From positions 46,728 through 110,727 of the forward strand of contig JBDLRP010000042.1 in NCBI GenBank assembly GCA_039799905.1: a stretch of DNA of 64,000 nucleotides. Direction: 5' to 3'. Of this stretch, positions 25,552-50,247 are shown one piece after another. The position numbers were made by a program, and so were the translations under genes. The number at the start of each line of letters is the position of its first letter. Positions within the stretch are counted from its first letter, which is position 1. The notes beneath the pieces are model-generated. The model saw nothing but the letters and a program-made list of their open reading frames with translations. It was not told where the DNA came from and ran no database searches. The DNA comes from Pseudomonadota bacterium (lineage in GTDB: Bacteria > Bdellovibrionota_B > Oligoflexia > Silvanigrellales > Silvanigrellaceae).

Positions 25552-25625
25552 GTCCTTCTTTTTCCGACATGACTGTCAGACAATAAAGGTGGGTCGGGAA
25601 ACCGCCCGCGGATTGGGGACCAGTG

Positions 25626-27323: not shown

Positions 27324-28426
27324 AGTCAGCAGCTCATCTGGCGTTGTGGCTTGCAACAGGGATTTTCGCTTCTGCGGATGCAGATGCTGAAGCGGCTCAA
27401 AAGAAAAAGAGACGTCCGTCTCAGTCACTCACACGCAGCGGCGGGCCCCAACGAGCCGTGGGAATTGTTGAAGTCTTTCTTTTCAAGAATAAAAACGTTG
27501 CCCAACGCTGCGCTGCATCACACGTCGGAAACGGCATCGTCGTCACCGCGGGCCACTGTTTCCTGGGTGCCTATGATTGCAACGAAGCTGTTGTTCACTG
27601 GGATGACGATTCGGTTGTCTCACGCTGTCAGCACATCATCTACAGCAATGCCAGCGAGGCCCACGCCAAAGGACGGGAGATTTCAAACGATCTGACTGTA
27701 TTCAAGGTCGACCGCTACCCTGAGGCCAGTGTCAACCTCGCGCCTGCAGCAATCGTTCAGGAACTGCAAAATGCGGGTGCTGATGCAATAGCAATTTCCA
27801 AAACGACACTCAACGGAAATCCCGCCACGATGACCTCGGCTACCTGCAGGATTGTCTTTGGTCCGATCCTGAATATCTTCTCACAACCCAAGCCGTCGGA
27901 CACCGCACGGCATAACTGCGACCTTTCCGAGATCTCCAGCGGCTCTCCGCTCATCAATTCGGCAACGAATCAACTGATAGCACTGCATCAGGGCACAAGC
28001 CTCCTGCCGGATCTGGAATCGTCACCCAACGGTGCGTCGTCGCAAAAAATTCATTATGCCAAGGTCATCTCCGATTTTGATGTGCGAAAGGCCATCAGTC
28101 TGCCTGATGCCCTGCCCAATGAAATTCGGGTGGGCGGTTTTGCAGGTGAGGTTTTCAATACCGGAATTGCAGAGCCCATCCAGATGACCGTTGCCCGCAT
28201 TCAGGCGCGCGCTGGCGAGTCGACCGTCTCGTTCGGGGTACACAATGGTCTGGATTCGGTCATTGAGGCCATCGACGGCAACGGCAAGAAAATGATTTTT
28301 GCAGGCCCGCGTCGCGCTGGTTACGACCAGCGATTCCGCATGAAGGCTCCCGTGCAAATCAAGCTCACCAATGCACAGGGTGGCATCGCACCCGTCGCTT
28401 GGATTGAGGACATTCAAAGCCCATGA
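27320..28426 (+). CDS. Secreted trypsin-like (S1) serine protease with C-terminal beta domain
   Basis: Signal peptide; C.A..VG..IVVTAGHC, NDLTVF, HNCD...SSGSPL...ALH; ATGA overlap with the upstream gene. Confidence 0.8.
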   Translation: MKSAAHLALWLATGIFASADADAEAAQKKKRRPSQSLTRSGGPQRAVGIVEVFLFKNKNVAQRCAASHVGNGIVVTAGHCFLGAYDCNEAVVHWDDDSVVSRCQHIIYSNASEAHAKGREISNDLTVFKVDRYPEASVNLAPAAIVQELQNAGADAIAISKTTLNGNPATMTSATCRIVFGPILNIFSQPKPSDTARHNCDLSEISSGSPLINSATNQLIALHQGTSLLPDLESSPNGASSQKIHYAKVISDFDVRKAISLPDALPNEIRVGGFAGEVFNTGIAEPIQMTVARIQARAGESTVSFGVHNGLDSVIEAIDGNGKKMIFAGPRRAGYDQRFRMKAPVQIKLTNAQGGIAPVAWIEDIQSP

Positions 28427-28441
28427 AGCGCTGACGTTTGC

Positions 28442-30751
28442 TCAAGGAGGAGGAGGGTCGTCGTCCCAGCAGACACCGCTCCCCCCTGAACACTTGGGAA
28501 TTGAGTAACGAATAGGCTTCGAGAGCAACCCAGAGACGTCCATATACCTCATGTAAAACTCAGCTGTATCGTCTTCTTTGAATGTAAAATCACTCAACTT
28601 CAATGTTCGCCGCACAGAAACCGGCGCCGCGGGTGTTCCACCATCAGACTCACGACAGCGGGTGTAGTCGCTGAGAGGCGCGGTGCTCACGGCATCCGCC
28701 GTGCCACCAATGACCCACTTGTAAATCAGCATTCCTATTTCCTCGTACTTGCCACCGGCATCCTGAGGCAAAGTTCTCACACTCAGGCGGTTGAGATCGT
28801 CACGGTACACATACGAGCCGATACTTTGCTGCAAGAAAGTGGCGTTTCCGCCCTTCTTTCCATTGAGATTCATTTCTTCTTCGGACGGAGTTCCCGAGGG
28901 CAAACAAATAGCAGCTGGTACCGAGTCGTCAAAATGCATTGTGACCTTACCAGCGCTCAAATCCTGCATCGTTAATGGATTGAGGGTACTCGGGGCGTTT
29001 GTATCGTTGATTTTCATATCAATATCACCCAGCAAAACCGACTGATCATCGTCTGTGATAACCGGTCGACCGGTATCGATAATGACCGTTACCACATTCA
29101 AACGCTTGGGTGAGATTGCGTTCGGATCGTCAAGCGACTCACTGACGTTGCCGAACTTGTCTTTCATGAACACATTCCAACGCTGACGACCACCGGCCTG
29201 TGCGATCTTGGCGGCCCGCTGGATGAATCCTGCTTCCTCGGCAGTGAATGTGGCAACACCCTTTACACATTCCTTGAAGACAGGTTCGATCATGGAATAG
29301 GCAGGTATGCTGAATCCCAAAGAGTCGCCGTCGTTGCATATCGGTGATTGCATTGTGAACGTGCTGCCGGCAAGACCCGGCACAACATTGGTGTGTCCGG
29401 AAACGCTCACAATCTTCACGTTCGTCCAGTCGTCAACTTCGTCAATCGTTCCACCGACCTCTTCAACCTCGACGGGAACCGCCAAATTCACCTTCATCAA
29501 TAAATCACGCGAGGGCGGACCAACCTTTTTATGCCCGAAAATCACCAACGGCGGAAAAGCATCGGCATTGTCTGACGACGCAGTTGAGCGCGACACTTTG
29601 ATTATAAACTTTCCTTCAGTCGAGTCCGTTTTCTTAAAAATCTTGGGCAACGGGATGCTAAATTCGGACTGAAAAATACTGACTTCCCTGGCTCCCTCAA
29701 TGGCTTCAAGAGAGGGCTCGAATTTATTGTCGGTTTCAAAGACTTCAACTTTCGCACCGCGCAAATTCGGGGTCAGCGAATCAATCCGCAAAAACAGAGA
29801 GTCGTCTTTTGTATGAACGACGTCACGTCCATCAATTTTGAGGTACTTCAGTTTCTCGGGAAAGCTTGGCACCAGAGCGTTGCTTCCTCCCGACTGGTCG
29901 GCGCAGGTGCGCAGTATAACAACAGGAGGCGTTTTTTCGATTAGCGAAAAATTATTCGATGGCGCAGATAAGTACGTACAATAGCCATCTGCCAGAGCAA
30001 GAATGTGATATCGGGTCAATTCAACGCTCGCATCGAGCGGACCGATAAATGCTGTGCCATCCTCTCCTGTTTTGACAAAAACAGGCCGCAAAAGTGAGTC
30101 ATGCCAAAGCGGTACACCGGATTCAAGCTTGCCGTCAGAAATTCCCGAGACCTTAATTCCGGCCAGAGGCTGACCCGATTCGTTGACCACTTTGACGCGC
30201 ACAAATCCAGCTTTGTTGAACAGTAGTCCGTCAATGCCAATGGTATCTTTGCCGGCAAACAAATTTCGCCGTGAAAGTGGCAACGGCGCCTGAAAATATG
30301 GAATAGCCTGATAATCCAAAGTTGAGTTGACTGCAGGCATGATCTCGATGCGCGAATACTTGTCGACTTTCTCTACCAAGTCTGGCCGGCCTGTGCCAAC
30401 GAATGGCAAAGCACCACCCATCGAGAGCAACTGATCGAGTTGTGTCGCCTTTTTCGCTTCATAGAGATCGCTGTCGCGCAGCTGGAACGAGAATTGTCCT
30501 TGCTCGCTGTTGTATTTCAAGTCGAAAGGCACCTGCCGTTGCCCCTCGGTGTCGATGAGTGAGAGCTGCAAGTTCTTGAGGTCGATTCCCTTTTGAACTC
30601 CGACAATTCCCGAAACGACGCGAGATTCACCCACCAAATAGACACGTCCGCCAGACGGCCTTGCACATGAATGCAGCCAGCCACAGGCAGCAATCAAGGC
30701 GATTGCACCTGTGGCCCGTTGCAGACTTTCTTGGAGAGCTCTCATAACCAT
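28442..30751 (-). CDS. Hypothetical multidomain lipoprotein (prealbumin-like and Ig-like modules)
   Basis: Lipobox LHSC; VRVKVVNESGQPLAGIKV...KTGEDG motif; MKDKFGNVS; begins 28 bp after the stop of giant paralog 1 on the same strand. Confidence 0.7.
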   Translation of the reverse strand: MVMRALQESLQRATGAIALIAACGWLHSCARPSGGRVYLVGESRVVSGIVGVQKGIDLKNLQLSLIDTEGQRQVPFDLKYNSEQGQFSFQLRDSDLYEAKKATQLDQLLSMGGALPFVGTGRPDLVEKVDKYSRIEIMPAVNSTLDYQAIPYFQAPLPLSRRNLFAGKDTIGIDGLLFNKAGFVRVKVVNESGQPLAGIKVSGISDGKLESGVPLWHDSLLRPVFVKTGEDGTAFIGPLDASVELTRYHILALADGYCTYLSAPSNNFSLIEKTPPVVILRTCADQSGGSNALVPSFPEKLKYLKIDGRDVVHTKDDSLFLRIDSLTPNLRGAKVEVFETDNKFEPSLEAIEGAREVSIFQSEFSIPLPKIFKKTDSTEGKFIIKVSRSTASSDNADAFPPLVIFGHKKVGPPSRDLLMKVNLAVPVEVEEVGGTIDEVDDWTNVKIVSVSGHTNVVPGLAGSTFTMQSPICNDGDSLGFSIPAYSMIEPVFKECVKGVATFTAEEAGFIQRAAKIAQAGGRQRWNVFMKDKFGNVSESLDDPNAISPKRLNVVTVIIDTGRPVITDDDQSVLLGDIDMKINDTNAPSTLNPLTMQDLSAGKVTMHFDDSVPAAICLPSGTPSEEEMNLNGKKGGNATFLQQSIGSYVYRDDLNRLSVRTLPQDAGGKYEEIGMLIYKWVIGGTADAVSTAPLSDYTRCRESDGGTPAAPVSVRRTLKLSDFTFKEDDTAEFYMRYMDVSGLLSKPIRYSIPKCSGGSGVCWDDDPPPP

Positions 30752-30779
30752 CCTTGGCTACCGTCCTCCGTCAAGGCGC

Positions 30780-33700
30780 TCACTTGGATTTGAGCGCGGT
30801 TGTGAAAGCAGTGCTGAAGTACACGTCATAGCTGCTGCATCCCGATGATCCGCACTGCGCTGGGCCCCAGAACTTGGCAGTCGTGCGCAGTTCGTTGCCA
30901 TTGACAAACCGGCCGGCATCCTTGAGTGCCTTGTGTTTGAGTGCAACCTTCGTCACGCCCGTGCTCGCCAGTGAAACCAATTCGCCAGCGCTCGACTGAC
31001 CATCTTTGTTCCTGTCGAACCAAACAAGCAACTTGCTATATGCGGCATCCTTGCTGTCGATCATGCCGTCGCGGTTTGAGTCGTACTGAGCAAGTGCGGC
31101 ATAACCGTCGCGCGCCTTCTTGCCGCTGTGAGCCAGTCTGGTTCCCTCACCAAACAGCTCCCGACCACCGTCAATCGCACCATTGCCGTCGAGGTCCATC
31201 GCGAGCAGGCCCACTCCGTCAAACCCACCAATCCAGCCAGTGCGTTCCTTCACGCCATCTCCGTCGAGGTCGAAACGAACCTTGCTCTCTTCGAGCGAGC
31301 TGAGCAGTGGTCGACCTACATTTGTGAAGTCGAGGATGATAGGCGAGAACAGCTGAACCGTGTAGGAACGTGTTGAACCGGCTGTTGGTCCGCCGAACGG
31401 TGTGAACTGAATCGATTCACCGTACCAGCTTTTTGAGCGGCGGATGAACGGTTCCAGAATACCGGGCATTTTGATATCAAACACACCTTCAGCAGGCTGT
31501 CCGGTTAGCTTGGCGCTGGTACCGGCGACGCTTGCTGTGGCAGCGCTGACGTTCATCTGGAAGTTGAATTCTGCATCGCATGCAGAGTTCACACCCTTAT
31601 CACACAAGTTTGCACGGACTCGCATTTTGTCTGCCGCACCAAAGACGCGGAACCAAATCGTGCTCGTTGCACTTGCCCATTGAGAGCCGGGGATTCCTCG
31701 GAAATTGACCCAGCACTGTGTTGTTCCGTGAGAGTGCCAGAACTTCACGCCGGCGCCGCGGCGGATACTAGTGCCGGTACAGGTGTCACTCCAGTTTGCC
31801 AGCGCAGGCGCAGTGAAGAAGTGCTGAACTTCCGAAATTTGCGGTGTGAGTTTCGGAATCTCACGTGGAGAATAGCCAATATCGGCACCCGCAGCCTTTG
31901 TCGCAGCGACAAGTGTCGGCTCTCCTGAGCGAATGGCAAGCGTCATCATCACGTCGAGCGCTTTGCTCAGAGCTGACTCCATATTACCAGTTCTGTCCTG
32001 CAGCGATTTAACGTCTTTGGCTGTTTTGCCGAACTGTGCCAGCTGATCTTTCATAGCAGCGACATCTTTGTCGATTTGACTGATACGTGCAGTTTGAGCG
32101 GCGTCTGTCGCCTCATTCGCAGCAAAGCGCTTTTGCACGTTTATCATCGTGTCGAACTCTTCTTGACGTTCAATAGCTTCAAATGTCGAGTCGACCCCCT
32201 CGGTGATAGTGAAGGCCATTTTTCCAAGCAACGTATTTGCGGCATCTGCCGGCGAAACCTTGCCAATCTTCTCGGACGGACTGGTCATATTCGCCATCGC
32301 TGCGCTGATGGTTGTGTGCTTGCTGCTGATCATTTTCGCAAAACGCACTTCCACGTTGGCCAGCGACGGTTTCAATGCTGTAACGGAGTTAGCGAAGTCA
32401 GTGACGGCGCGTTTGAAGCCATCGTCGGCAACCAATCGGGCGCGAACATCTTTCGACGTCGCTGAAGTGCCATTGAGAACGCCCATTGCCCACGCTTTGA
32501 TCTGGCTCATACACTTCGGATCATCGGCCCCGCCCTCCACCTTGCGAATGGATTCAAGCATCACATAATGATGCAAGCTGCTGCCGTCTGTCAGCTTGGG
32601 CTGCCAGAAGTAGAGTGCGTCCATGTTCGAACCGCGATTTGAGTTCACCAGCGCAGAAATATATTCATCCGCAAGGAAGTCGAACGAATCACGGCCAAAG
32701 GCATTGGCGAAGTCGGCATCGGCTTTGCCGCCACACGATGCCATAATCGGAACAAAGGAAGCGTCGAATGCCTCAACACGGGTGATTTTATTTCCATTGC
32801 GCGTTGGCTGCTTTGGCTGCAGAGCCGCAAGGAACGCCCGTCGCAATTGGCCGAACATTGTCAGCGTGTTGACAAGCGGACCCTTCGTGGGTTTACCGTT
32901 GACCATCACTTTGGTGACCGCACCATAGTCGGCAGATACACCATCGGAGAAAGCTGTCATGGAAGCATCGTCAAGTTTGAGGTCGACGACCTCAACCAGG
33001 TGGCTCGAAAGAGCACCTTCCATCGCCTTGTCCTGCGCTTTCATCTGAGCAAGATCGGTAGCAACCTTCTTGAAGTTTGCCTGAACTTCTGCACCGAGGT
33101 TAGCGACCATTTTTTCAGCGTTCGCGGCAACCTCTGCGAGGCGTTTGTTGAAGTCGGCCTTCATTTCTTCAAGGTTCTTGTTCAGGCCGTCGATTTGCCC
33201 CTGAGTCAACTTGAACTGATTTTGGACGTGTTCTTTTTGTGCAGCGACGTCGGCCTTGATCAAATTGATTTGGTCAGCATGTTGCTGCGCCATGGCCAAC
33301 GACTGGTTGGCGATTTGTGCAACGGCCTTAATCTCGTCCTTCAAAGAGGTCATCTCTTTGGTCATCTGATCTTTCAATGCCTGCTCTGCAGCCACAACTT
33401 CTGCAAACTGCTTCTGCACTTTTTCCTGCTCTTCCTTCAACTCGGTGTTGGTTTTGTCAACCTGACTCTCCAACGCAACGATCTTGTCGCTCAACTCTCT
33501 CTTGATATTCTGACTCACCCACTCGAAGTTGGCTGCTTCCGTCTTGACCTGCAACATGAGGTCCGCGTTTACGGCCTCCTGTTTGGCACTGTTGTCCGCG
33601 ATAGCGGCAAACAAAGCGTCATCCTGATTCTTCATATCGCTGCGCACAGCGGAAAGCTCTTTGGTCATGTTTTCTTTGATGGCGTCAATCTGCTTTTGGT

Positions 33701-36700
33701 AATCAGCAATTGCACCGCCGAGTCCGTCGCGCACGCCCGCAACACTGACTTCTACGTTCTGAATTCGCTGAGCAAGTGATGAACTTGCAGCGTCGACTTC
33801 ACTCGAAATCAATGCCTTCATTTTTTCACTTTCGCGTATCGCATCAGCCTTCATGATCGTGGTCACTTCCTCAAGGCCATCGATACGTACCCTGAGCGCC
33901 TGCAGCTCTCCCTTTGTTGCGTAGTTTTGCGCAACGTAAGCCTTGAACTCTTCCTGCGCCTGAGCAACGGCTTCGACGCGTGCCGCCACCTTTTGGGTTT
34001 CCAATGCAGCATCTGCGAGTTTCTTCTCGATTGCCTGAGCCGACGCTATAATGGCGGCTTCGGTCACTTTGCGCTCAGCAGCAAGGCCGGTCTTCAGGTC
34101 ATCAATCGTCGCCAAGGTTTTCTGGTCGATGGCTTTTAAAGTTCCTTGCAGTTTGGCAATCTCTTCTGCACTCGAGTTGGCCTGTCCGGCCATCGCGGCT
34201 TTCAAGTCATCTTCAAGTTTCTGCCGAGCATCCGCCTGAGCAGTGTTGAGAGAAGATAAATCGGCGCTGAGCTGCTTGAGTTGCTCGGCACGTTCCGATT
34301 TCTCGAGCTCGAGTGCAATGCGTTGATCCGCAGTCGCCGCAGCAAGCTTGGCATCGAGTGCCGCAGTTGCCTGTTCCTGCTTCGAGATAGCTTCCATGAG
34401 CTCTGAAACTCTTCTTGCGGCATCGGCCTCAGCCTTTTTCTGGGCTTCAATCAGGAAGTCGATCTGTGCTTTCAGATTTGCGTTACCTGCGTCAATTTTG
34501 CTGATGAGGGAACTGTTCAATGCCGTCAGGGCATCGCCCGACTCCTTCCTCAGTGTCGCAACGGATTCATTCAACGTGGATGTGAGGCGTGATTCCGCAT
34601 CTTTCAGCTTGCCTTCCAAGCTTGCGATGCTGCCATTGATTGCGTTCACCTCATTTTTCAGCTTTTCAGAAATCTTGCCATCGAGTGCGGCAAGCTTGTT
34701 GTCCATTGCGGAACTGAGGTTTGCGAGGCCATCGGCGATCTTGGCATCCAAGACACTGCGCGCTTCTTTGACGGTTGTGTCCAATGCGGTAATTTTCGCA
34801 TTGAATTCACCCCGCAGATTCTCGACGTCCTCGCCCATCTTCTTTTCAATATTGTCCGCACGGGCTTTGCCCTCTGTATCGACTCTGACAATTTGCTCGG
34901 TCAAGGCGGCCATCTTCAGCTGGGTGGCAACTGATTCGGCCTTCAATTTTTCCGTGATGTCCTGAGTTGTCTTTTTTAGTTCTTCTGCGGATTGAGCAGA
35001 CGCATCATTGATCTTCTTGTCAAGTTCGGCTCGGACTTTAGCATCACCTTCAGCCATTGTTACAAGCAAGCTGTCTGCTGCAGCCTTCAAGTCTGCTGCA
35101 GATTTAGAGGACGCCTCCTCGATCTTGGCCAACATTTGATTCTTTACTTTGACAATTTCAGAATTTGTCATTGAAAGGTTAGCATTGGTCGACGCAATCT
35201 CATTGATAATCTGCAGCGACTGAGCCTTGAGTGCCTCGATTGCTGCAGAATTTTTTCCGGCATCAGCTTTCGCCTCAGCAGCAAGTGCATCAAGCTTCTT
35301 TTGCATGTCAGCTCGGTTCGCATCATCCGTGCTCTTTATGAGAGCCTTCATTTCAGCAGCAAGCGAGTTCTTGCTGTCAACAATGGCCTGCTCGAGGGCA
35401 GCCTTTTCACGAGCCACCTGGCTCTGAAAATCTGCAAGCGCCGCGGTCGTAGAAATGATCTTCTTCTCATTGTCAGCAATTTTGGAATTGAGAACGTTTG
35501 CCTTTGTTTCGAAGGCGCTCTTGGTGGAGGCAATCTCGTTGGTATTGGTATCAATTTTCTTCTGCAGATCGGCCTTTTGTGCGGACAGGGAACTCTCAAG
35601 CGAAGCAACTTGTGAGCGGAGCTCGTCTGCAGATGCTGCGCTGGCAGCAGCGATTGCCGCATTGAGATTTGCAGTTGCCGACGTCAGGTTGCTGTTTGTT
35701 GCCGACAAATCGCTGTTCAGTTGGGTCAACTCTGAACGCAACGCAGTTTCCTGAGCAGCAAGACTCGCAACAAACTGTTCTTTTGTCTGGCTCACTGACT
35801 CGCGTAGAGCAGCCTCGGTGAACGCCAATTGAGCTCTTGTCTCGTCAATTTTCGCAGCGTTGCTCGCGATCGCTGCGGACAATTTAGCGGCCTCCTCTGA
35901 CAGTTTCGCAGCGTTTTCAGCATTGCCGTCGGCAATGGCTTTCGCAATTTCCTCGTTTTTCTTAATTTGTTCGGCTCTATTTGCATCAATGGCTTTTGAG
36001 TTTGTATCGATAGCTGACTGTAGCTCAGTCTTGGTTGCACTGATGGAGGCAACCAGCTCAGCCTTGGTTTTGTTGGCAGCATCCTCAAGAACTGCTTTGG
36101 TATCCGCAATAAATTTATTGGTGGAGTCGATTCGCGCATTTGCACGAGCAACTTCATCTTGCAGCTCAGCCTTCTGCTGCTGAAGCTTGTTCTCAAGAGC
36201 GTTGAGTCCGTCCTTCAAGGAAGCAACATTGGTGTCCAGATCCTGCTTGAGCAGATCCTGAGCAGCCTTGAGAGCCTCCTCTTTCTGCAGCATCAGTTCC
36301 TTGTTTGCTGCAATCTCGGCAGTGTTCGCTGCAATCTTCTCGTTCAATTCATCAGTGGCTGAAGCCAGCTCTTCAAGGGTAGCAGCATTGGCCACAGCAA
36401 TGGCCTCGCGCAACTCCTCATCTTGCACTGCCATCTCACCACGCAATTTGCCTGCCTCAGCCAAGATCAAGTCAGTCAAGGAGTCGTTCTGAATTTTAAG
36501 CGAATTCTTAAGGCCGAGCTCGGCTTCGGCAAGGCGGATAGCATATTTTTTGTCAACTTCACTGATGCTCTCACCCAGCTGTGCATCAGCTGCGGCGAGT
36601 TTTTCGAACTGGCCTTCCATGTACAATCGCAAAACCTGATCACGACTGTCCACATCCTTGAAACGATTTTCGACCTGCACTTTGAAGTCGCGCAACTCGA

Positions 36701-37001
36701 GTTCAAGGGCGTCAATGCGAGCTCCCAAACGCTTGTCTTCTGCCTCGCGTTCCAATTTCTCTTTATCGATGAGGCCCCGCAACAGACGCTCGGTCGCTTC
36801 CGCGTTGCGCTTTGTCAGTGAGTCAGCTGTACCAGCGCTATTGGCCTTCAGTTTGGTCGAAGAGCGGGCAGCTAAGTCAAGCAGCTGTTGGTCGCTGCTG
36901 CCTGAAGTGCGTCCGCAACCACCAACGGTGGACAGTAGAGTCAGACTGGAAAATGACAAAAGCGCCATACGGATTGAATGATTGCGTCTGTTTGATCTCA
37001 T
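30780..37001 (-). CDS. Giant coiled-coil lipoprotein with C-terminal FrpC-SPM-like Ca2+-binding module (paralog 1, 2073 aa)
   Basis: Signal peptide ending VGGC; ~1,270 aa Ala/Lys/Glu/Leu heptad-rich region; Cys-containing head; SPIILD..FDLDGDG..ERTGW..LLAMDLDGNGAIDGGRELFG..GYAALAQYDSNRDGMID..D..YSKLLVWFDRNKDG.S..GEL.SL...GV. Confidence 0.88.
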   Translation of the reverse strand: MRSNRRNHSIRMALLSFSSLTLLSTVGGCGRTSGSSDQQLLDLAARSSTKLKANSAGTADSLTKRNAEATERLLRGLIDKEKLEREAEDKRLGARIDALELELRDFKVQVENRFKDVDSRDQVLRLYMEGQFEKLAAADAQLGESISEVDKKYAIRLAEAELGLKNSLKIQNDSLTDLILAEAGKLRGEMAVQDEELREAIAVANAATLEELASATDELNEKIAANTAEIAANKELMLQKEEALKAAQDLLKQDLDTNVASLKDGLNALENKLQQQKAELQDEVARANARIDSTNKFIADTKAVLEDAANKTKAELVASISATKTELQSAIDTNSKAIDANRAEQIKKNEEIAKAIADGNAENAAKLSEEAAKLSAAIASNAAKIDETRAQLAFTEAALRESVSQTKEQFVASLAAQETALRSELTQLNSDLSATNSNLTSATANLNAAIAAASAASADELRSQVASLESSLSAQKADLQKKIDTNTNEIASTKSAFETKANVLNSKIADNEKKIISTTAALADFQSQVAREKAALEQAIVDSKNSLAAEMKALIKSTDDANRADMQKKLDALAAEAKADAGKNSAAIEALKAQSLQIINEIASTNANLSMTNSEIVKVKNQMLAKIEEASSKSAADLKAAADSLLVTMAEGDAKVRAELDKKINDASAQSAEELKKTTQDITEKLKAESVATQLKMAALTEQIVRVDTEGKARADNIEKKMGEDVENLRGEFNAKITALDTTVKEARSVLDAKIADGLANLSSAMDNKLAALDGKISEKLKNEVNAINGSIASLEGKLKDAESRLTSTLNESVATLRKESGDALTALNSSLISKIDAGNANLKAQIDFLIEAQKKAEADAARRVSELMEAISKQEQATAALDAKLAAATADQRIALELEKSERAEQLKQLSADLSSLNTAQADARQKLEDDLKAAMAGQANSSAEEIAKLQGTLKAIDQKTLATIDDLKTGLAAERKVTEAAIIASAQAIEKKLADAALETQKVAARVEAVAQAQEEFKAYVAQNYATKGELQALRVRIDGLEEVTTIMKADAIRESEKMKALISSEVDAASSSLAQRIQNVEVSVAGVRDGLGGAIADYQKQIDAIKENMTKELSAVRSDMKNQDDALFAAIADNSAKQEAVNADLMLQVKTEAANFEWVSQNIKRELSDKIVALESQVDKTNTELKEEQEKVQKQFAEVVAAEQALKDQMTKEMTSLKDEIKAVAQIANQSLAMAQQHADQINLIKADVAAQKEHVQNQFKLTQGQIDGLNKNLEEMKADFNKRLAEVAANAEKMVANLGAEVQANFKKVATDLAQMKAQDKAMEGALSSHLVEVVDLKLDDASMTAFSDGVSADYGAVTKVMVNGKPTKGPLVNTLTMFGQLRRAFLAALQPKQPTRNGNKITRVEAFDASFVPIMASCGGKADADFANAFGRDSFDFLADEYISALVNSNRGSNMDALYFWQPKLTDGSSLHHYVMLESIRKVEGGADDPKCMSQIKAWAMGVLNGTSATSKDVRARLVADDGFKRAVTDFANSVTALKPSLANVEVRFAKMISSKHTTISAAMANMTSPSEKIGKVSPADAANTLLGKMAFTITEGVDSTFEAIERQEEFDTMINVQKRFAANEATDAAQTARISQIDKDVAAMKDQLAQFGKTAKDVKSLQDRTGNMESALSKALDVMMTLAIRSGEPTLVAATKAAGADIGYSPREIPKLTPQISEVQHFFTAPALANWSDTCTGTSIRRGAGVKFWHSHGTTQCWVNFRGIPGSQWASATSTIWFRVFGAADKMRVRANLCDKGVNSACDAEFNFQMNVSAATASVAGTSAKLTGQPAEGVFDIKMPGILEPFIRRSKSWYGESIQFTPFGGPTAGSTRSYTVQLFSPIILDFTNVGRPLLSSLEESKVRFDLDGDGVKERTGWIGGFDGVGLLAMDLDGNGAIDGGRELFGEGTRLAHSGKKARDGYAALAQYDSNRDGMIDSKDAAYSKLLVWFDRNKDGQSSAGELVSLASTGVTKVALKHKALKDAGRFVNGNELRTTAKFWGPAQCGSSGCSSYDVYFSTAFTTALKSK

Positions 37002-37050
37002 GCCACGCCCCCATGGGATGAAAAATTTGCCCGGGAAGTTCCAAGAGGTA

Positions 37051-37077
37051 TGCTCGGCGGGTTTTCAAAAAGCTTGA
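37051..37077 (-). promoter_or_regulatory. Putative sigma28-type promoter of giant paralog 1
   Basis: TCAA-N15-GCCGAGCA, ~50 bp upstream of ATG 37001. Confidence 0.55.
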
Positions 37078-37192
37078 TAACTTTTGTTAAATCACTCGAA
37101 TCATTGCTTTAATTTGCCGAGTCTGGGGTTCTGTTCGACTCCGGAGGTGGTGCCAGATTTGCCCGATTTCCGGTGCCGTTTACACAAAATGT

Positions 37193-37227
37193 AAAAAAGC
37201 GGCGAATCCACCAAAGGATTCGCCGCT
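37193..37227 (-). terminator. Rho-independent terminator after giant paralog 2
   Basis: AGCGGCGAATCC-tttggt-GGATTCGCCGCT stem followed by a T-run on the minus strand. Confidence 0.85.
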
Positions 37228-37262
37228 CGCATTACTGACTGACGCGCAAAGAACCGTTCCGT

Positions 37263-40200
37263 TTATTTGCCCTTCATGACGGTTGTGAATGCGGTACTGA
37301 AGTAAACATCATAGCTGTTGCAACCCTGACTGCCGCACTCCTGTGGTCCCCAGAACTTCGCCGTAGTGCGCAGCTCGTTGCCATTGATGAAGCGGCCCGC
37401 GTCTTTCAACGACTTATGCTTGAGGGATACCTTGGTGACACCGGTTTCAGCAAGCGGCACAATTTCGCCTTCTCCTGTCTTGCCATCCTTGTTCTTATCG
37501 AACCACACCAAAAGGTTGCTGTAGACAGCGTCCTTGGCATCAATCATGCCATCGCCGTTGTCGTCATACTGGGCAAGTGCGGCATAACCGTCGCGTGCGC
37601 GTTTTCCGTTACGCACCAGTTTCGTTCCTTCGCCAAACAGCTCTAGCCCGTTGTCAATGCTGCCATTTCGGTTGAGGTCCATGGCCAAAATGCCCACGCC
37701 TCCGTATCCGCCGATCCAGCCAGTCCGCTCCGTCACTCCGTCTCCGTTCAGGTCAAAGCGGACTTTGCTTTGGTCAATGGATGTAAACTGTGGCCGCCCA
37801 ATGTTTGTATAGTCGAGGACGATCGGTGAATAGAGCTGAACCCGATACGCAGAGGTTGCTCCAGCTTTGCCATCTCCAAATGGCGTGAAACTGATCACCT
37901 CACCCCACCAGGCAGAATCGAGGTATCCATAGCCAAAGTTGCTTGACCTGCGGATGTAGGGGTCAAGAATCAACGGCATCCTAAAGTCGAACACACCCTC
38001 AACAGGTTGACCGGTGAGCTTGGAACTGATGCCAGCGACACTCGTCGTAGCAGCTGTGGAGCTGAACTGATAACTAAACTCGGCATCACAGGTCGAGTTA
38101 GCGCCTTTGTCGCACAAATTCGAACGCACGCGCATTTTGTCGGCGGCACCGAACACACGGAACCAAATCGTACTCGCTGCACTTGACCATTGCCTGCTCG
38201 AAATACCGCGGAAGTTCACCCAACACTGTCCGCCCGCAGTCCAGAATTTAACGCCTGCTCCGCGGCGGATGCTGTTGCCGGTACAGGCGTCGCTTCCGTT
38301 TGCCAGTGCGGGTGCCGCAAAGAAGTGCTGAACTTCCGAAATCGCGGGTTTAACCGGACGCACTTCCTTAGGCGCATAACCCATTGCAGCGCCCGCTGCT
38401 TTCGTAGCAGCAACCAATGAAGGCTCACCCGAACGAATGGCCAAACTGAGCATCACATCGAGCGCCTTGCTTAAAGCGGCTTCCATTTTTCCAGTTTTAT
38501 CCTGCAGCGATTTGACATCGTTTGCAGTCTTTCCAAACTGGGCAAGCTGAGTTTTCATAGCTGCGACATCTTTGTCCAGACTATTGATGCGCGCTGTCTG
38601 CTTTGCATCGGTGGCTTCGTTCTGAGCAAAGCGTTTTTGTACCTCGACGATCGCGTCGAACTCTTCCTGACGCTGGATTGCGTCAAAGGTCGCGTCGACA
38701 CCGTCGGCAATCGTGAAAGCCATTTTGCCCAACAAATTATTAGCAGCATCTGCCGGCGACACCTTGCCCAGCTTCTCCGCCGGATTGCTGATATTCACCA
38801 TAGCCTGTGAAATCGTCGTGTGTTTGTTGTTGATCATCTTTGCGAACCGAAGCTCAACGGCTGCCAGTGATGGTTTCAAATCGTTGACCGACTTGGCAAA
38901 ATCCGCAACAACCCGCTTGAAGTTGTCGTTGCCGGCAAGACGCGCGCGCACGTCCTTCGACGTTGCCGATTTGCCATTCAAAATACCTGTTGCCCATGCT
39001 TTCACTCGGCTCATGCAATTCGGGTCGTCCGCGCCACCTTCAAGTTTGCGCACTGCCTCAAGCAACACGTAGTGATGAAGGTTTGAGCCGTCACTCAGCT
39101 TGGGCTGCTTGAAGAAGACTGCATCCATGTTGGAGCCGCGATTTGAGTTAATCAGTGCCGAAACATACTCGTCAGCAAGAAAGTCGAATGAATCCCGGCC
39201 AAATGCGTTGGCAAAATCGGCATCTGCACGGCCGCCGCATGCCGCCATGATAGGAACAAATTCCGCATCAAAACCCTCATTGCGTGTCAATTTGGCTCCG
39301 TCGCGGGTCGGCATCTTCGGTTGCAGGGCCTGAAGGAATGCCTTTCTTACCTCACCGAAAAGCTCGAGTGTGGTGACCAGTGGGCCGCGAGTTGGTTTTC
39401 CATTCACGATGGTCTTTGTAACCTTACTGAAATCAGACGTCACTCCGTCTGAGAATGCAGTCATCGAACCTTCATCCAGCTTGAGGTCAACGACCTCGAC
39501 GAGATGGCTCGAAAGTGCACTTTCCATCGCTTTGTCCTGTGCCTTCATTTGAGCGATGTCGGTCGCGACCTTCTTGAAGTTTTCCTGAACTTCGCTGCCC
39601 AAATTTGCAACCAGTTTTTCCGCATTCGCCGCGACTTCAGCAAGACGCTTGTTGAAGTCGGCTTTCATCTCATCCATTTTCGTGTTGAGCCCGTCAATCT
39701 GGCCCTGAGTAAGCTTGAACTGCTTAGCCACGTGCTCTTTCTGGGCTTCAACATCGGCTTTGATAAGATTGATCTGCTCTGCATTTTGTTGTGCCATCGC
39801 CAAAGACTGATTGGCGATTTGTGCAACCGCCTTGATCTCATCCTTGAGGGCAGAGATCTCTTTGGTCATCTGATCCTTCAAGGCCTGTTCCGCAGCTACC
39901 ACTTCGGCAAACTTCTTTTGAACAGCTTCCTGCTCGGCCTTCAAGTCGGTGTTGGTTTTGTCGATCTGGCTCTCGAGTGCGACAATCTTCTCACTCAGTT
40001 CCTTCTTGACGTTTTGACTCATCGTTTCAAAGTTTGCCGCCTGAGTTTTAATTTGCAACATCAGGTCTGCATTAACTGCCTCTTGTTTCGCTTTATTGTC
40101 CGCAATCGAAGCAAACAGAGCGTCATCCTGAGTCTTCATGTCCGAACGCACCGAGGCCAGCTCTTTCGACATGTTGTCCTTGATCGACGATATCTGCTTT

Positions 40201-43200
40201 TGATAATCATCAATCGCGCCACCAAGCTTGTCGCGAACGTCTGCAACGTTGGCCTCGACGCTCTGTATCCGCTCCGTCAGTGCGCTTTTGGCAGCTTCCA
40301 CCTCTTTCGAAATAAGTGTCTTCATCTCCTCGTTCGAGCGGACCATGTCTGCGTTCATGATCTTCGTGACATCTTCCAGGCCAGAAACGCGTGTTTGAAG
40401 CGCAAGCAACTCACCCTTGGTTGCGTAGTTTTGTGCGACGTAGGCTTTGAATTCTTCCTGCGCCTGCGCAACTGCCTCAACCCGCGCAGCGACTTTCTGT
40501 GTTTCAATGGCGGCGTCTGCCAACTTTTTCTCGATTGCCTGTGCCGAAGCAATGATTGCTGCCTCGGTCACCTTGCGCTCTTCAGCCAAACCAGTTTTTA
40601 GGTCGTCGATGGTCGCGAGTGTTTTCTTGTCGATTTCCTTCAGAGCACCCTGAAGATTGGCGAGTTCGTCGGCACTCGCAGCTGCCTGTCCGGCAAGAGC
40701 AGTCTTCAGGTCAGCCTCGAGTTTTGCACGTGCATCAGACTGTGCAGTGTTGAGTGAGGTAAGGTCGGCGCTTAACTGCTTCAACTCAGCGGCCCGCGCC
40801 TGCTTTTCAAGCTCAAGCGCAATTGCTTGTTCTGCACTGGCAGCAGCCAGTTTGGCATCCAGAGCAGCGTTGGCGAGTTCCTGTTGACCAATCTTCTCCA
40901 GCAGGTCGGCGACCTGTTTTGCGGCATCCGACTCGGCCTTTTTCTGAGCCTCGACAAGGAAGTCAATTTGCGCCTTGAGGTTTGCGTTGCCTGCATCAAT
41001 CTTACTTGTCAGACTCGTATTCAACGCTGTCAACGCATCGGATGACTCTTTGCGCAGAGTGTTCATGGAATCATTTAATTGGGTTGTCAGTTTTTGTTCA
41101 GTTTCAACCAGCTTGCCTTCGAGGTTGGCAATACTGCCGTTGATCGCAGAAACCTCCGCTTTCAATTTGTCTGAAATCTTACCTTCCAGAGAAACAAGTT
41201 TGGAGTCCATTGCCGCACTGACGTTTGCCAGACCTTCGTTGATCTTGGCGCTGAGCACGTCGCGGGCATCCTTAACCGACGCATCGAGGGCGGTGATTTT
41301 TGCAGTAAATTCTCCACGGATATTGTCTATGTCTTCCGCCATTTTCTTCTCAAGATTCGCGGAGCGTTCTTTTCCTTCTGTATCGACCTTGACGATTTGT
41401 TCAGTCAATGCCGCCATCTTCAGCTGCGTGGAAACCGACTCTGCTTTCATTTTATCGGTAATGTCGGCTGTCGCCGCTTTCAACGCGTCTGCCGACTCAG
41501 TCGAAGCATCATCAATGCGCTTCTCAAGGTCTGCACGCACTTTGGCGTCAGCTTCGGCCATCTGTGTGAGCAGCCCATCAGCCGCCGCTTTCAGGTCTGC
41601 CGCAGATTTGTTTGAAGCCTCTTCGATCTTTGCAAGCATCTGGTTCTTAACGCGGGCAATTTCGGAGTTCGTCATCTCCAGATTTGAGTTCGTTTTGGCG
41701 ATCTCCTCGATAATTTCCAAAGATTGCGCCTTCAGTGCATCAATCGCGGCGGCGTTCTTGTTGGAGTCTGCTTTTGCATCCGCTGCAACCGCATCGAGCT
41801 TCTTCTGCATTTCTAGCCGATTAGCCTCATCAGTGCTCTTGATGAGCGCCTTCATCTCTGCAGCAAGAGAGTTTTTACTGTCGACAATCGCCTGTTCAAG
41901 TGCAGCCCTCTCCTGCGCCACTTGTGTTTTGAAATCGTCGAGTGCAGCTGTTGTTGAAATGATTTTCTGCTCATTTGCATCAATTTTTGCTTCGAGATCT
42001 GCAGCCTTGGTTTCAAATGCACTCTTGTTGTCTGCAATCGCTTTTGTGTTGTCGTCGATTTGCTTTTGCAGCTCGGCCTTTTGCTCAGTCATGCTGGATT
42101 CCAGAGCAGCAACTTTCGACCTGATCAGCTCAGAAGTACTTGCACTCGCAGCCTCAATCGCTGTCTGCAAATTGGACTTCGCAATCTCGAGGTTGCTGTT
42201 GGTGTCGTTAAGGTCAGATTTTATTTGGGCAAGGCCTGCCTCGAAGGCGACCTGTTGATCGGTCAAACTTGCAACCATCTGGTCTTTTGTCTGACTGATT
42301 GAATTGATCAGGGCGACTTCAGTCGACTTCAGCTGACTTTTTGTTTCCTCAATGGCTGCCGAGTTGCTTGCAATTTTTGCAGCGAGCTCTGCAGCTTTTA
42401 AATTCAGTGACTCCGTCAACTCGGCATTGCCAGCGGCTATTGCCTTGCTCAACGAGTCGTTGACCTTGAGCTGCTCAGCTTTGTTGTCCGCTATAGCCTT
42501 TGCGTTCGCATCTATTGACGACTGAAGTGATGTTTTTGTTTCGTTGAGGCTTGCAACAAGTTCCGCCTTCGTCTTGTTGGCGGCGTCTTCCAGCAGCGAT
42601 TTGGTGTCGGCGATAAACTTGTTGGAGGAATCGATACGTGCATTTGCCTTGGCCACTTCATCAAGCAGCTCCGCCTTCTGCTGTTGCAGGCTGTTTTCCA
42701 AAACATTCAAGCTATCCTTCAATGCTGCAACGTTTGTCGAGATGTCCTTTTTGAGCAGTTCCTGCGCTGCCTTCAGAGCTTCTTCTTTCTGCAGCATCAG
42801 TTCCTTGTTGGCGATAATATCGGCTGTGTTCTGAGCTATTTTCTTATCGAGCTCGTCCTTCGCTTCAGCAAGCTGATCGAGCGTCGCAGCGTTTGTAACT
42901 GCAATTTCTGCGCGCAGTGCCGCATCCTGGTCGGCAAGTTCACCACGCAATTTTCCAGCTTCCGCAAGCACAAGGTCTGTCAGGGAGTCGTTTTGGGCCT
43001 TCAGAGATTCCTTCAGTGCCAGTTCTGCTGCGCCAATCCGCATTGCAAATTTTTTGTCGATGTCGCTGATACTGGATGCCAACTGTGAATCCGCTTCTCT
43101 CAGTTTGTCGAATTGACCTTCCATATACAATCGCAGAACTTGATCTCGGCTGTCGACGTCGGTGAAGCGTTTCTCGACTTGTTCCTTGAATGTTCTGAGC

Positions 43201-43505
43201 TCAAGCTCGAGGGCATCTATGCGGTCACTCAGACGTTTGTCCTCAGCAATACGTTCGTCTCTCTCTTTGTCGATGAGTCCACGCAAGAGGCGCTCAGTCG
43301 CTTCGGCGTTTCGTTTGGTGAGAGAATCCGCAACACCAGAGCTGTTCGCTTTCAGGCGGGTGGAAGAACGCGCAGCCAAATCGAGTAGCTGCTGATCGCT
43401 GCCCCCGGAATTGCGTCCGCATCCCCCAACAGTTGCTAGCAAGGTGAGACTCGAGAATGACAAAAGAGTCATACGAATTGCTTGCTTGCGCCTGTTTGTT
43501 CTCAT
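37263..43505 (-). CDS. Giant coiled-coil lipoprotein with C-terminal FrpC-SPM-like module (paralog 2, 2080 aa)
   Basis: Start re-assigned to ATG 43505 (MRTNRRKQAIRM, collinear with paralog 1, same GGGGGCGTG upstream); same architecture and motifs as 30780-37001. Confidence 0.88.
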   Translation of the reverse strand: MRTNRRKQAIRMTLLSFSSLTLLATVGGCGRNSGGSDQQLLDLAARSSTRLKANSSGVADSLTKRNAEATERLLRGLIDKERDERIAEDKRLSDRIDALELELRTFKEQVEKRFTDVDSRDQVLRLYMEGQFDKLREADSQLASSISDIDKKFAMRIGAAELALKESLKAQNDSLTDLVLAEAGKLRGELADQDAALRAEIAVTNAATLDQLAEAKDELDKKIAQNTADIIANKELMLQKEEALKAAQELLKKDISTNVAALKDSLNVLENSLQQQKAELLDEVAKANARIDSSNKFIADTKSLLEDAANKTKAELVASLNETKTSLQSSIDANAKAIADNKAEQLKVNDSLSKAIAAGNAELTESLNLKAAELAAKIASNSAAIEETKSQLKSTEVALINSISQTKDQMVASLTDQQVAFEAGLAQIKSDLNDTNSNLEIAKSNLQTAIEAASASTSELIRSKVAALESSMTEQKAELQKQIDDNTKAIADNKSAFETKAADLEAKIDANEQKIISTTAALDDFKTQVAQERAALEQAIVDSKNSLAAEMKALIKSTDEANRLEMQKKLDAVAADAKADSNKNAAAIDALKAQSLEIIEEIAKTNSNLEMTNSEIARVKNQMLAKIEEASNKSAADLKAAADGLLTQMAEADAKVRADLEKRIDDASTESADALKAATADITDKMKAESVSTQLKMAALTEQIVKVDTEGKERSANLEKKMAEDIDNIRGEFTAKITALDASVKDARDVLSAKINEGLANVSAAMDSKLVSLEGKISDKLKAEVSAINGSIANLEGKLVETEQKLTTQLNDSMNTLRKESSDALTALNTSLTSKIDAGNANLKAQIDFLVEAQKKAESDAAKQVADLLEKIGQQELANAALDAKLAAASAEQAIALELEKQARAAELKQLSADLTSLNTAQSDARAKLEADLKTALAGQAAASADELANLQGALKEIDKKTLATIDDLKTGLAEERKVTEAAIIASAQAIEKKLADAAIETQKVAARVEAVAQAQEEFKAYVAQNYATKGELLALQTRVSGLEDVTKIMNADMVRSNEEMKTLISKEVEAAKSALTERIQSVEANVADVRDKLGGAIDDYQKQISSIKDNMSKELASVRSDMKTQDDALFASIADNKAKQEAVNADLMLQIKTQAANFETMSQNVKKELSEKIVALESQIDKTNTDLKAEQEAVQKKFAEVVAAEQALKDQMTKEISALKDEIKAVAQIANQSLAMAQQNAEQINLIKADVEAQKEHVAKQFKLTQGQIDGLNTKMDEMKADFNKRLAEVAANAEKLVANLGSEVQENFKKVATDIAQMKAQDKAMESALSSHLVEVVDLKLDEGSMTAFSDGVTSDFSKVTKTIVNGKPTRGPLVTTLELFGEVRKAFLQALQPKMPTRDGAKLTRNEGFDAEFVPIMAACGGRADADFANAFGRDSFDFLADEYVSALINSNRGSNMDAVFFKQPKLSDGSNLHHYVLLEAVRKLEGGADDPNCMSRVKAWATGILNGKSATSKDVRARLAGNDNFKRVVADFAKSVNDLKPSLAAVELRFAKMINNKHTTISQAMVNISNPAEKLGKVSPADAANNLLGKMAFTIADGVDATFDAIQRQEEFDAIVEVQKRFAQNEATDAKQTARINSLDKDVAAMKTQLAQFGKTANDVKSLQDKTGKMEAALSKALDVMLSLAIRSGEPSLVAATKAAGAAMGYAPKEVRPVKPAISEVQHFFAAPALANGSDACTGNSIRRGAGVKFWTAGGQCWVNFRGISSRQWSSAASTIWFRVFGAADKMRVRSNLCDKGANSTCDAEFSYQFSSTAATTSVAGISSKLTGQPVEGVFDFRMPLILDPYIRRSSNFGYGYLDSAWWGEVISFTPFGDGKAGATSAYRVQLYSPIVLDYTNIGRPQFTSIDQSKVRFDLNGDGVTERTGWIGGYGGVGILAMDLNRNGSIDNGLELFGEGTKLVRNGKRARDGYAALAQYDDNGDGMIDAKDAVYSNLLVWFDKNKDGKTGEGEIVPLAETGVTKVSLKHKSLKDAGRFINGNELRTTAKFWGPQECGSQGCNSYDVYFSTAFTTVMKGK

Positions 43506-43552
43506 CACACGCCCCCTTGCGATTAAATAAAATCGAGTCTTGACATCAGAGA

Positions 43553-43579
43553 GGCTCGGAAGAGTTGAGGGAATATTTA
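43553..43579 (-). promoter_or_regulatory. Putative sigma28-type promoter of giant paralog 2
   Basis: TAAA-N15-TCCGAGCC, ~48 bp upstream of ATG 43505. Confidence 0.55.
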
Positions 43580-43710
43580 TAGAAAATCTCAAGGAGCTAA
43601 TAAAACTCAGTAATTTTAGATACAAAATTTGCGCTGCTCACGTCCCCTGCAGTGCAATTCCTGAGGAATAGAAAATGGCCCATTCATTTCGGCATGTAAA
43701 AGGTACCGTC

Positions 43711-43738
43711 TAAACATCCCAAGCTTATCTTCCGATAC
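43711..43738 (+). promoter_or_regulatory. Putative sigma28-type promoter of the divergent lipoprotein
   Basis: TAAAC-N15-TCCGATAC, 27 bp upstream of GTG 43766. Confidence 0.5.
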
Positions 43739-43765
43739 GTCTGAGTGTTTGCATTCGGGGGTGCC

Positions 43766-44599
43766 GTGAATCACATTTTGCCATACGTGTCCGTGGCTGT
43801 TTTGTTGTTTCAAGGGTGCGAGAGCGCACCAACCTACAAAGCGACTTCAAAGCCACCCGTGACTAAATCTAAGGCTGGCGCCAACGCTGAGGCTATCGGG
43901 AGCGAAGGCGCCAGCGCGGCGCAGGAAGAAAACGTAGGACAAGCCCAGCCGCCGGGCGAAAATGCGACGCCTGAAGAACCCAAACCAGTTGCTCGTCCGT
44001 CATGTGACGACAAAACAACGGTGAAGAGCGACGTCATCAAGGTCTTGATTCCCAAAAATGATCCGCAAAATGGCGGAAAACAATGTCCTTTCGGAAAAGA
44101 CGACAACAACGCGACGACCAACGGCGGCGGGAAATATACAGCTCGTATTGAACGACGTTTCGACATCGCGATCCCTGCCGACAGACAGGTCTGCACTCTT
44201 GAGGCCAGCAGCGCACAACAACAGATTGAGTACGACGACCATCTTTTCCTGAATCTCAACAACCATGTGTTGATAGCAAGCCGCAGAATTCCGACCGACA
44301 AATTCAACAAGGCTGCAAACGGTTTTTACCTGTACGACTGGGCAAAAATCCGAGGAACACAGGCGGAAGGGCAATCCAAATGCGCAGACGGCGTCACGTG
44401 TTCGATTCCAAACACGCAGACAACGGGCACCTTTTCCTTCAAGTTGAGTGAAGAAGCCAACAAGCGGATATTCGAGTCGCTTGCCGGACAACCACTGTAT
44501 TTCAGCATGGTTCTGACCGGCGACGACAACCCGCCTGTCGATTGCTCCCAAATATACGATATTACTCTGGATGTTTCGTACACCTACATCCCCAAATAG
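43766..44599 (+). CDS. Hypothetical Cys-containing lipoprotein
   Basis: GTG start after GGGGG; lipobox FQGC; low-complexity linker followed by a beta-rich domain with six Cys. Confidence 0.7.
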   Translation: MNHILPYVSVAVLLFQGCESAPTYKATSKPPVTKSKAGANAEAIGSEGASAAQEENVGQAQPPGENATPEEPKPVARPSCDDKTTVKSDVIKVLIPKNDPQNGGKQCPFGKDDNNATTNGGGKYTARIERRFDIAIPADRQVCTLEASSAQQQIEYDDHLFLNLNNHVLIASRRIPTDKFNKAANGFYLYDWAKIRGTQAEGQSKCADGVTCSIPNTQTTGTFSFKLSEEANKRIFESLAGQPLYFSMVLTGDDNPPVDCSQIYDITLDVSYTYIPK

Positions 44600-48052: not shown

Positions 48053-48661
48053 TTGCAGGTAGCCCGCACCGACCGACAACTCGTCGTCCAAATTCTTTCA
48101 AAACTCCCGTGGTTTTCATTGGTTATTATACTCGGACAAATTTGCTTCTTCATGCTCGCTGCCTTTGCCGACGACCGGTCGACGCTTTTCTCGCTGCAAA
48201 CCGGAGATTCCTCTGGGGCGCTGGGCGGAGCCTTTGACCTGCGCGCTCCAATGCAAAATCTCGCCCTCAACGCAATAAGCAGCTTTTTTGTCCATGCGGA
48301 TGCGACGCATTTGTACACAAATCTTGTGTTTGCGTTGTTAGTCCTGATTCCGCTCGAATTACGCTTTGGTAAGCTTATGACAGGTCTTGCGCTCTTGTCG
48401 GGGCATCTTTCCGGACTTCTGGGCGCTGCATTTGCCTTTTATTTTCTCTCACAGCCTCCCTTGGTTGCCGGAATGAGCGGAGGACTGCTGGCGGCGGCCG
48501 TGCCAGTGCTCGCCACAAGAGGGAAGACGTTCGCGCTGATGTTTTTGGGTTTGCTCTGCATTGGTTGGATTGTTTTTTCTTGGCATTCATTTGCCAGCCA
48601 TGCCCTCCCAATTGCGGCAGGCTGGCTGTTGAACAACACAAAACTCAACGGCAAGAATTGA
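48053..48661 (+). CDS. Rhomboid-family intramembrane serine protease
   Basis: Multiple TM helices; S.F.H....HL..N, LE.RFG, AGMSGG (GxSG), S...H...AG. Confidence 0.8.
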   Translation: MQVARTDRQLVVQILSKLPWFSLVIILGQICFFMLAAFADDRSTLFSLQTGDSSGALGGAFDLRAPMQNLALNAISSFFVHADATHLYTNLVFALLVLIPLELRFGKLMTGLALLSGHLSGLLGAAFAFYFLSQPPLVAGMSGGLLAAAVPVLATRGKTFALMFLGLLCIGWIVFSWHSFASHALPIAAGWLLNNTKLNGKN

Positions 48662-50153: not shown

Positions 50154-50173
50154 CCGCAGCCTGTTTTTTACGA

Positions 50174-50201
50174 GGTTCGGCAAACTAGGACTGCGACTGT
50201 A
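50174..50201 (-). promoter_or_regulatory. Possible sigma28-type promoter
   Basis: TACAG-N15-GCCGAACC, 20 bp upstream of ATG 50153. Confidence 0.4.
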
Positions 50202-50247
50202 GAAAAACCTTGGGACGAACGGGAAGAATTTCAAAATACCAATATTT

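Follow-up and report, generated by a model that had tools for sequence, protein, structure and literature searches.

A family of predicted lipoprotein rods with a long helical stalk and an FrpC-like terminal cap in Oligoflexia

Introduction

FrpC's self-processing module (SPM) has been described together with its cleavage mechanism, its three Ca2+ loops and a tryptophan pair (PMC7078468). The side chain of Asp414 itself attacks the bond, and the replacement D414A abolishes both cleavage and linking (PMC7846742). A second point of reference is the β-layer, a motif of coiled-coil stalks; every β-layer construct in PMC4786415 is a trimer. The stretch of DNA analysed here (the window; 64,000 nucleotides of contig JBDLRP010000042.1, assembly GCA_039799905.1) encodes two tandem paralogues, the rods, in which an SPM-like cap ends a protein that is mostly helical stalk. 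The source organism is an uncultured freshwater relative of Bdellovibrio (Oligoflexia), with a genome of 3.38 Mb that is 94% complete.

The rod family and the gene cassette to which it belongs are real and undescribed. No description of the family was found in the literature on the FrpC SPM, non-RTX SPM lipoproteins, Oligoflexia, Silvanigrellaceae and hendecad stalks, a search that extended to neither subscription papers nor supplements; among the matches listed for FrpC combined with Bdellovibrionota or Oligoflexia and coiled coils, none contains FrpC. The three genes of the window on which the analysis centres are the following.

37263..43505, minus strand: rod paralogue 1 (P0002), 2,080 amino acids from ATG, with lipoprotein signal, stalk, helical domain, second coil, immunoglobulin (Ig)-like head and an SPM-like cap starting Tyr-Ser1893-Pro
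30780..37001, minus strand: rod paralogue 2 (P0001), 2,073 amino acids, architecture as in P0002
28442..30751, minus strand: partner lipoprotein P0003, 769 amino acids, a chain of Ig-, transthyretin- and fibronectin type III (FnIII)-like domains, starting 28 bp behind P0001

Architecture of the rods

The two rods are 75% identical, with 58–87% identity per bin of 100 residues over the whole length and without large gaps. Pfam and NCBIfam scans of these three genes and a divergent neighbour gave only sub-threshold coiled-coil matches. In P0001, the parts are arranged as follows.

36915..37001, minus strand: signal peptide and lipobox VGG/C (Cys29, Gly at +2), predicted from the sequence; Cys29 nearly invariant in the family alignment
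32982..36881, minus strand: stalk, about residues 41–1340, proline-free, period about 3.63, five tandem N@d-type motifs
33906..33923, minus strand: motif YATKGE of the β-layer type, residues 1027–1032 (consensus in PMC4786415)
32247..32969, minus strand: family-defining helical domain, about residues 1345–1585, with invariant Cys1423 and Cys1497
31881..32252, minus strand: second coil, about residues 1584–1707, from the structure model
31350..31853, minus strand: head, about residues 1717–1884, an Ig/FnIII-like β-sandwich with four Cys that varies between family branches
30780..31346, minus strand: SPM-like cap, residues 1886–2073, with Ser1886-Pro1887 at 31341–31346 and invariant Glu1952, Asp2059 and Trp1923

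In both rods, VGGC with Cys29 stands behind a hydrophobic stretch, the best 19-residue hydropathy being 1.4, compared with a later maximum of 1.03. The open reading frames, the hydropathy and the conserved Cys bear out the original prediction of two tandem paralogues with a lipoprotein signal. By signal peptide, lipobox and conserved Cys, the rods are probably bacterial lipoproteins.

The SPM-like cap

The C-terminal module is a true homologue of the FrpC SPM, as had been anticipated from its motifs. The last 188 amino acids match the FrpC structure 6SJW at E 1e-27, and a model of the tip (residues 1330–2073, 744 amino acids; mean predicted local distance difference test score, pLDDT, of 75) aligns with it at Z 21.9 and a root mean square deviation of 2.5 Å over 163 residues with 36% identity, the runner-up reaching Z 7.7. 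Foldseek finds the same relationship at E 3e-11 and returned no match at E 0.001 when the tip model was compared with viral proteins.

The cutting residue is lost: Ser, overlooked in the original prediction, replaces Asp414 before the SPM proline in both rods, giving Ser-Pro instead of Asp414-Pro415. The same pair is found in 71 of the 72 rod tips compared (69 by pattern and two more by eye from alignment rows), the last one, P0342, having Trp-Asp-Pro. Because this position is Ser in the rods and D414A abolishes cleavage in FrpC, clip-and-link chemistry of the FrpC type would not be expected. All 37 rods with a full tip have Ser-Pro here, Glu (Glu1952) where FrpC has D478 and Asp (Asp2059) where it has D579, two residues that in FrpC belong to a transient fifth site, and the W451/W519 pair is kept as Trp in 37 and 35 of them, respectively. 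Three sequential EF-hand-like loops are kept too and, by homology, would bind Ca2+, whereas the fourth Ca2+ site (D419/D421/D423/G424) is degenerate, with the first Asp alone retained (D-F-T-N-V). P0342 (960 amino acids, probably partial) combines Trp-Asp-Pro with an Asp at each of the positions D478 and D579, a full FrpC-type site, and is a candidate clip-and-link fibre tip.

The original prediction also regarded an SPM outside RTX proteins as out of the ordinary, which was overstated. The domain family (PF26745 in precomputed matches) matches 23,533 clusters at 50% identity, and many of the carriers are non-RTX proteins, so that PMC7078468 is not correct in stating that RTX proteins alone carry the SPM. 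Within RTX-repeat proteins, 326 SPM copies were sampled, in a manner biased towards the Ser-Pro query, and the 268 readable ones comprise 49 with Asp, 112 with Ser and 107 with other residues (including Ala, Pro, Thr and Leu); most of the SPM-like copies sampled thus lack the cutting Asp. SPM-like domains outside RTX proteins and without the Asp are common, not rare in themselves, and what is special here is the rod family rather than the loose module. The role of Asp-less SPMs can now be tested with a natural pair in one family, the Ser-Pro rods and the one Trp-Asp-Pro rod.

Other Oligoflexia proteins carry the module in simpler settings. Proteins of 410–610 amino acids, mostly with lipoprotein-like N-termini, end in a Ser-Pro SPM and have neither stalk nor Ig partner (loci L029, L033, L037–L040 and L066–L068, with a tandem pair in L066). 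A type IV pilin-like N-terminus is joined to a C-terminal SPM-like module in L036 (8229–9881) and in P0186 (Ser-Pro), among other pilin-like genes.

The stalk

The first proline of the rod is residue 1371, which leaves a stalk of about 1,300 residues proline-free. Thirteen windows of 100 amino acids in the first rod have their hydrophobic peak at 3.56–3.68 residues (mean 3.625, power 6.6, compared with 1.6 at 3.5), and the period is 3.61–3.65 in all six rods tested. Judged from its sequence, then, the stalk is a mix of heptads and hendecads, not pure heptads, and by coiled-coil geometry such a mix implies a nearly straight coil. Of the heptad-rich stalk originally described, the long helical stretch stands and the strict heptads do not.

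Two kinds of motif bear on the number of chains. YATKGE at residue 1027 fits the β-layer consensus (aliphatic residue, A-T-K, polar residue, D or E) except for Tyr in the first place (PMC4786415), and a loose form of the motif, nearly invariant in the alignment, is found at the aligned position in 31 of the 37 rods. Tandem I-x-x-N motifs, which resemble N@d, number five and six in the two rods, compared with 0.3 expected and with none of 2,000 shuffles reaching these counts. From the β-layer and N@d motifs together, the stalk is probably trimeric.

The helical domain starts at residue 293–1,373 in 57 rods (392–1,373 without P0342, which is probably truncated), whereas the rest of the protein stays at 650–794 amino acids. 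Given that the stalk, of about 390–1,370 residues across the family, can triple in length while the rest hardly changes, it is best read as an extended spacer, in line with the extended stalk proposed originally. At 0.15 nm per residue, the predicted stalk length is about 195 nm in the window rods and from about 60 nm in their relatives.

Helical domain, head and family distribution

A profile of the helical domain has matches in 18 of the 104 genomes of the phylum, all Oligoflexia from five families. These include eight of the nine other genomes of the genus and none of the 12 genomes of a sister genus. Where the rods are duplicated, there are two to four per genome, and the tree contains pairs of nearly identical twins; as this tree was built quickly and has long branches, the well-supported twin pairs alone were used. 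No known relative of the helical domain was found: its profile matched nothing below E 0.1 among solved structures, and fold searches with the 744-residue model barely probed it, so that no new fold is claimed. An atlas search with helical domain and head reached 0.78 at best and gave no lead.

The head is modelled as an Ig/FnIII-like sandwich with unspecific structural matches (Z about 7); residues 1730–1771 are conserved and yet poorly predicted as a monomer, and no ligand-binding fold or motif was identified in the head. Across the family, at least four clusters of heads can be told apart that give no BLAST matches to one another, while the helical domain and the cap persist. The third rod of the same genome (contig C48, 1,561 amino acids) has the helical domain and cap in common with P0001 and P0002 but a different, Thr-rich head and a Thr-Ser-Pro site. 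The heads thus appear to be exchangeable between family branches.

The gene cassette

In its model (pLDDT 84), P0003 consists of consecutive transthyretin-like and FnIII-like sandwiches, the best structural match being Z 9.8 over 81 residues; in an atlas search, a cluster auto-named PrcA (0.90) and carboxypeptidase-regulatory-like proteins (0.87) came up as leads only. Linkage was assessed, as the original prediction had proposed, by a neighbourhood survey, in this case of 40 SPM-bearing proteins in fetched loci, 23 rods and 17 non-rods. A P0003 homologue lies behind 17 of the 21 rods with room for one (16 directly and one behind the twin) and is missing at four; two further rods are at a contig end. 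In contrast, it is found beside none of 16 non-rod SPM proteins (the 17th being a cut-off rod fragment). The linkage holds in four families. The P0003 profile contained nine of the 16 direct partners but not the other seven, which include loci from three other families. Seen from the partner, 27 of 39 P0003-family genes sit just behind an SPM-tip match, and ten of the remaining 12 were inspected, six being without a rod and four at contig ends. The six lipoproteins without a rod are in L053 (4383–6437), L054 (6314–8419), L055 (4084–6150), L056, L057 and L058, and several of them adjoin a barrel-like gene; a pair of the P0003 and barrel-like types may serve other cargo.

At seven of the 17 loci, the partner is followed by a third gene, the product of which resembles an outer-membrane barrel in its alternating strands and its terminal aromatic residue. 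Its Pfam matches reach E 0.02 at best and its profile matched no solved structure below E 0.1; a genome search places it behind further partner genes. The third rod of the window's own genome, a P0003 paralogue and a barrel-like gene follow one another in L001 (7235–15497, contig C48), which is among these seven loci, as a complete three-gene cassette. A second barrel-like homologue of this genome (L092, 5123–6460, contig C21) lies upstream of a 405-residue lipoprotein-like gene on the other strand.

Rod and P0003 thus constitute a real gene cassette, to which P0003 alone of the two flanking lipoproteins belongs, although both had been proposed as partners. The second is divergently oriented.

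43745/43766..44599, plus strand: divergent Cys-containing lipoprotein of an unnamed family

Homologues of this gene (43766–44599) occur in 19 of 41 genomes, and a single genome of the class can hold as many as 10 copies. It was rejected as a part of the system because in none of the 18 other genomes does it stand on one contig with an SPM-tip match (the assemblies are fragmented) and because it has a homologue in none of the 21 loci scanned.

Probable function of the rods

With a probability of roughly 0.55, the rods form trimeric surface fibres anchored by lipid, in which the Ca2+-folded cap stays uncut and the head sets specificity, and which multi-Ig and barrel partners anchor or export; such fibres would reach about 200 nm beyond the outer membrane and likely hold the cell to other cells or to particles. 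In Escherichia coli, the +2 residue of a lipoprotein guides its sorting to the outer membrane, and the rods, by their lipobox and the Gly at +2, would be exported by Sec, lipidated at Cys29 and sorted to that membrane. Three chains would wind into a nearly straight coiled coil. The cap would fold on Ca2+ like the FrpC module, with no cleavage or cross-link, and act as a stable cap or as a folding nucleus below which head and stalk assemble. The multi-Ig lipoprotein and, at other loci, the β-barrel-like protein would anchor, assemble or export the fibre, and the exchangeable head, perhaps with the cap, would determine what is bound.

Several observations weigh against this account. Most lipoproteins of Gram-negative bacteria face the periplasm, and no export route was found among those searched for. 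The rods have no RTX nonapeptide repeats, and the genome has no match to PF00353 and none over the cut-off to type I HlyD, which agrees with the original observation that RTX tract and type I secretion gene are both missing. The YadA anchor (PF03895) is likewise absent from the genome, the rod C-terminus being the SPM fold, and neither GspL of type II secretion nor the S74 domain (PF13884) was found there. The cassette is imperfect, with four of the 21 rods lacking the partner, six partner homologues lacking a rod and no β-barrel gene at the window locus. As to the trimer, a β-layer-like motif appears by chance in 5–16% of shuffled stalks, and the I-x-x-N pattern was picked after the sequence had been read and is missing from three shorter relatives. 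The head, at Z about 7, matches no adhesin specifically. Finally, because cultured Silvanigrellaceae are listed as non-predatory (PMC11656739), nothing points to prey, and the originally suggested prey capture has no support of its own.

An active role of the cap is conceivable, if unlikely: Ca2+-driven strain at the aromatic-Ser-Pro site could let Ser attack the preceding bond (an N-to-O acyl shift), so that the cap would be a self-removing chaperone that unmasks the head, as S74 does for Bdellovibrio MAT fibres and phage spikes. None of the four reaction-site residues varies among the 37 rods, despite the decay of the adjacent fourth Ca2+ site, and Ser follows an aromatic residue in 68 of 69 rods, compared with 5 of 112 RTX Ser-Pro copies. 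Moreover, the residues that work best before Asp-Pro in FrpC are His, Tyr and Trp (PMC7846742), one rod (P0342) carries the full Trp-Asp-Pro site, and the terminal position is that of S74 in its fibres (PMC10769870). However, Ser-Pro is the commonest reading in the RTX copies too (112 of 268), with Ala, Pro, Thr and Leu among the alternatives, a pattern that suits a structural turn; the last head strand of the model ends with the aromatic residue; invariance among kin is not independent evidence; and no such reaction was met in the literature consulted. In a wider and similarly doubtful form of this idea, the rods would be a new appendage class with a biogenesis route of its own, a trimeric lipid-anchored rod whose length can be tuned and which a dedicated multi-Ig lipoprotein and β-barrel install on the surface, with the Ser-Pro cap as a Ca2+-triggered self-removing folding chaperone that uses serine chemistry. 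If true, this would give a function to thousands of Asp-less SPM domains in bacteria.

It is also improbable that the rods are periplasmic and form an envelope scaffold that lines the outer membrane on its inner side, where head and cap would bind wall or membrane partners. The periplasm is open to outside Ca2+ and the failure to identify an export system would then be expected. Trimeric coiled coils with β-layers do occur in envelope connectors such as SlpA of Deinococcus (PMC9388160). Nevertheless, a stalk of 60–200 nm far exceeds the width of the periplasm, no wall-binding domain was detected in the rods by family scans, and the variable heads, repeated duplication and patchy presence (0 of 12 genomes in the sister genus) suit a surface protein better than a core scaffold. 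Least likely of all, surface rods of the same anatomy would act, rather than as adhesins, as a brush or spacer that protects the cell from grazers, phages or predatory bacteria, the cap merely stiffening the tip, a role compatible with the lack of an identified ligand-binding fold or motif in the head but at odds with head exchange between branches, which suggests selective binding.

Other features of the window

37197..37228, minus strand: terminator-like hairpin between the two rod genes (consensus scan), 13 pairs followed by a T run

Of 32 sites, compared with 23 expected by chance, no other on the coding strand comes near this hairpin in the length of its G+C stem, and the position between the rod genes suggests that P0001 and P0002 are separate transcription units. 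RNA contigs from four runs of three studies map to both rod genes, in one run almost throughout; this is weak evidence because contigs cannot show the level of expression or rank genes, and DNA may be present. Gaps over the P0003 gene in three of the runs are counted as no finding, and a promoter scan (12 sites, compared with 8.1 expected) was not used.

A U32-family gene (44679–47345, plus strand) lies directly upstream of a rod in L026 too, so that the local order is partly conserved. On the other side, a 566-residue protein without a Pfam match and a trypsin-like protein (25623–28426, plus strand) converge on P0003; neither was met beside other rods. Large open reading frames without a Pfam match occupy 669–3371, 48645–50234 and 60288–61832, all on the minus strand, and encode 900, 529 and 514 amino acids, respectively.

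Comparison with known systems

With the SPM of FrpC and FrpA from Neisseria and of ApxIVA from Actinobacillus (PDB 6SJW and 6SJX; PMC7078468), the rods share the fold, the three EF-hand-like loops, the Trp pair and the acidic residues at D478 and D579. Like FrpC with its neighbour frpD (PMC3034196), they are accompanied by a lipoprotein gene. They differ in having Ser-Pro in place of Asp-Pro, a degenerate fourth Ca2+ site and a module that is C-terminal, not internal, on a predicted Sec lipoprotein instead of an RTX substrate of type I secretion.

Trimeric autotransporter adhesins such as OMP100 and SadA combine a long coiled-coil stalk with N@d-type and β-layer motifs (PMC4786415), such as are also present in the rods, and the helper lipoprotein SadB adjoins SadA (PMC3953254) as P0003 adjoins the rods. 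The polarity of the rods is opposite, with a predicted N-terminal lipid anchor and a C-terminal tip, neither protein nor genome has a YadA barrel, and none of the export routes searched for was recognised.

The MAT fibres of Bdellovibrio (PMC10769870) come from a related lineage and, like the rods, have several paralogues per genome, a constant frame with exchangeable C-terminal tips and a terminal domain of the self-processing type. MATs, however, are β-rich and trimeric, measure about 55 nm and bear an S74 protease/chaperone (PMC10769870), whereas the rods are helical, apparently lipid-anchored and encoded in a genome without S74; the conserved β-rich N-terminal domain of MATs is absent from the rods, which begin with a lipobox followed by helical heptad-like sequence. 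The grappling hook protein GhpA of Aureispira (bioRxiv 10.1101/2024.01.29.577165) is of similar length (240 nm), and its gene is followed by genes for a β-barrel and a second anchoring protein (GhpB/C); it is a heptamer of Ig repeats with type IX export, and no homology to the rods was found.

Overall, the rods would act like an adhesin fibre and are members of none of these classes, being without barrel anchor, S74, RTX or Asp-Pro. They constitute an undescribed family of putative fibres, reversed in polarity relative to the autotransporter adhesins, that spans at least five families within the Oligoflexia, freshwater bacteria that have been little studied and are kin to predatory ones.

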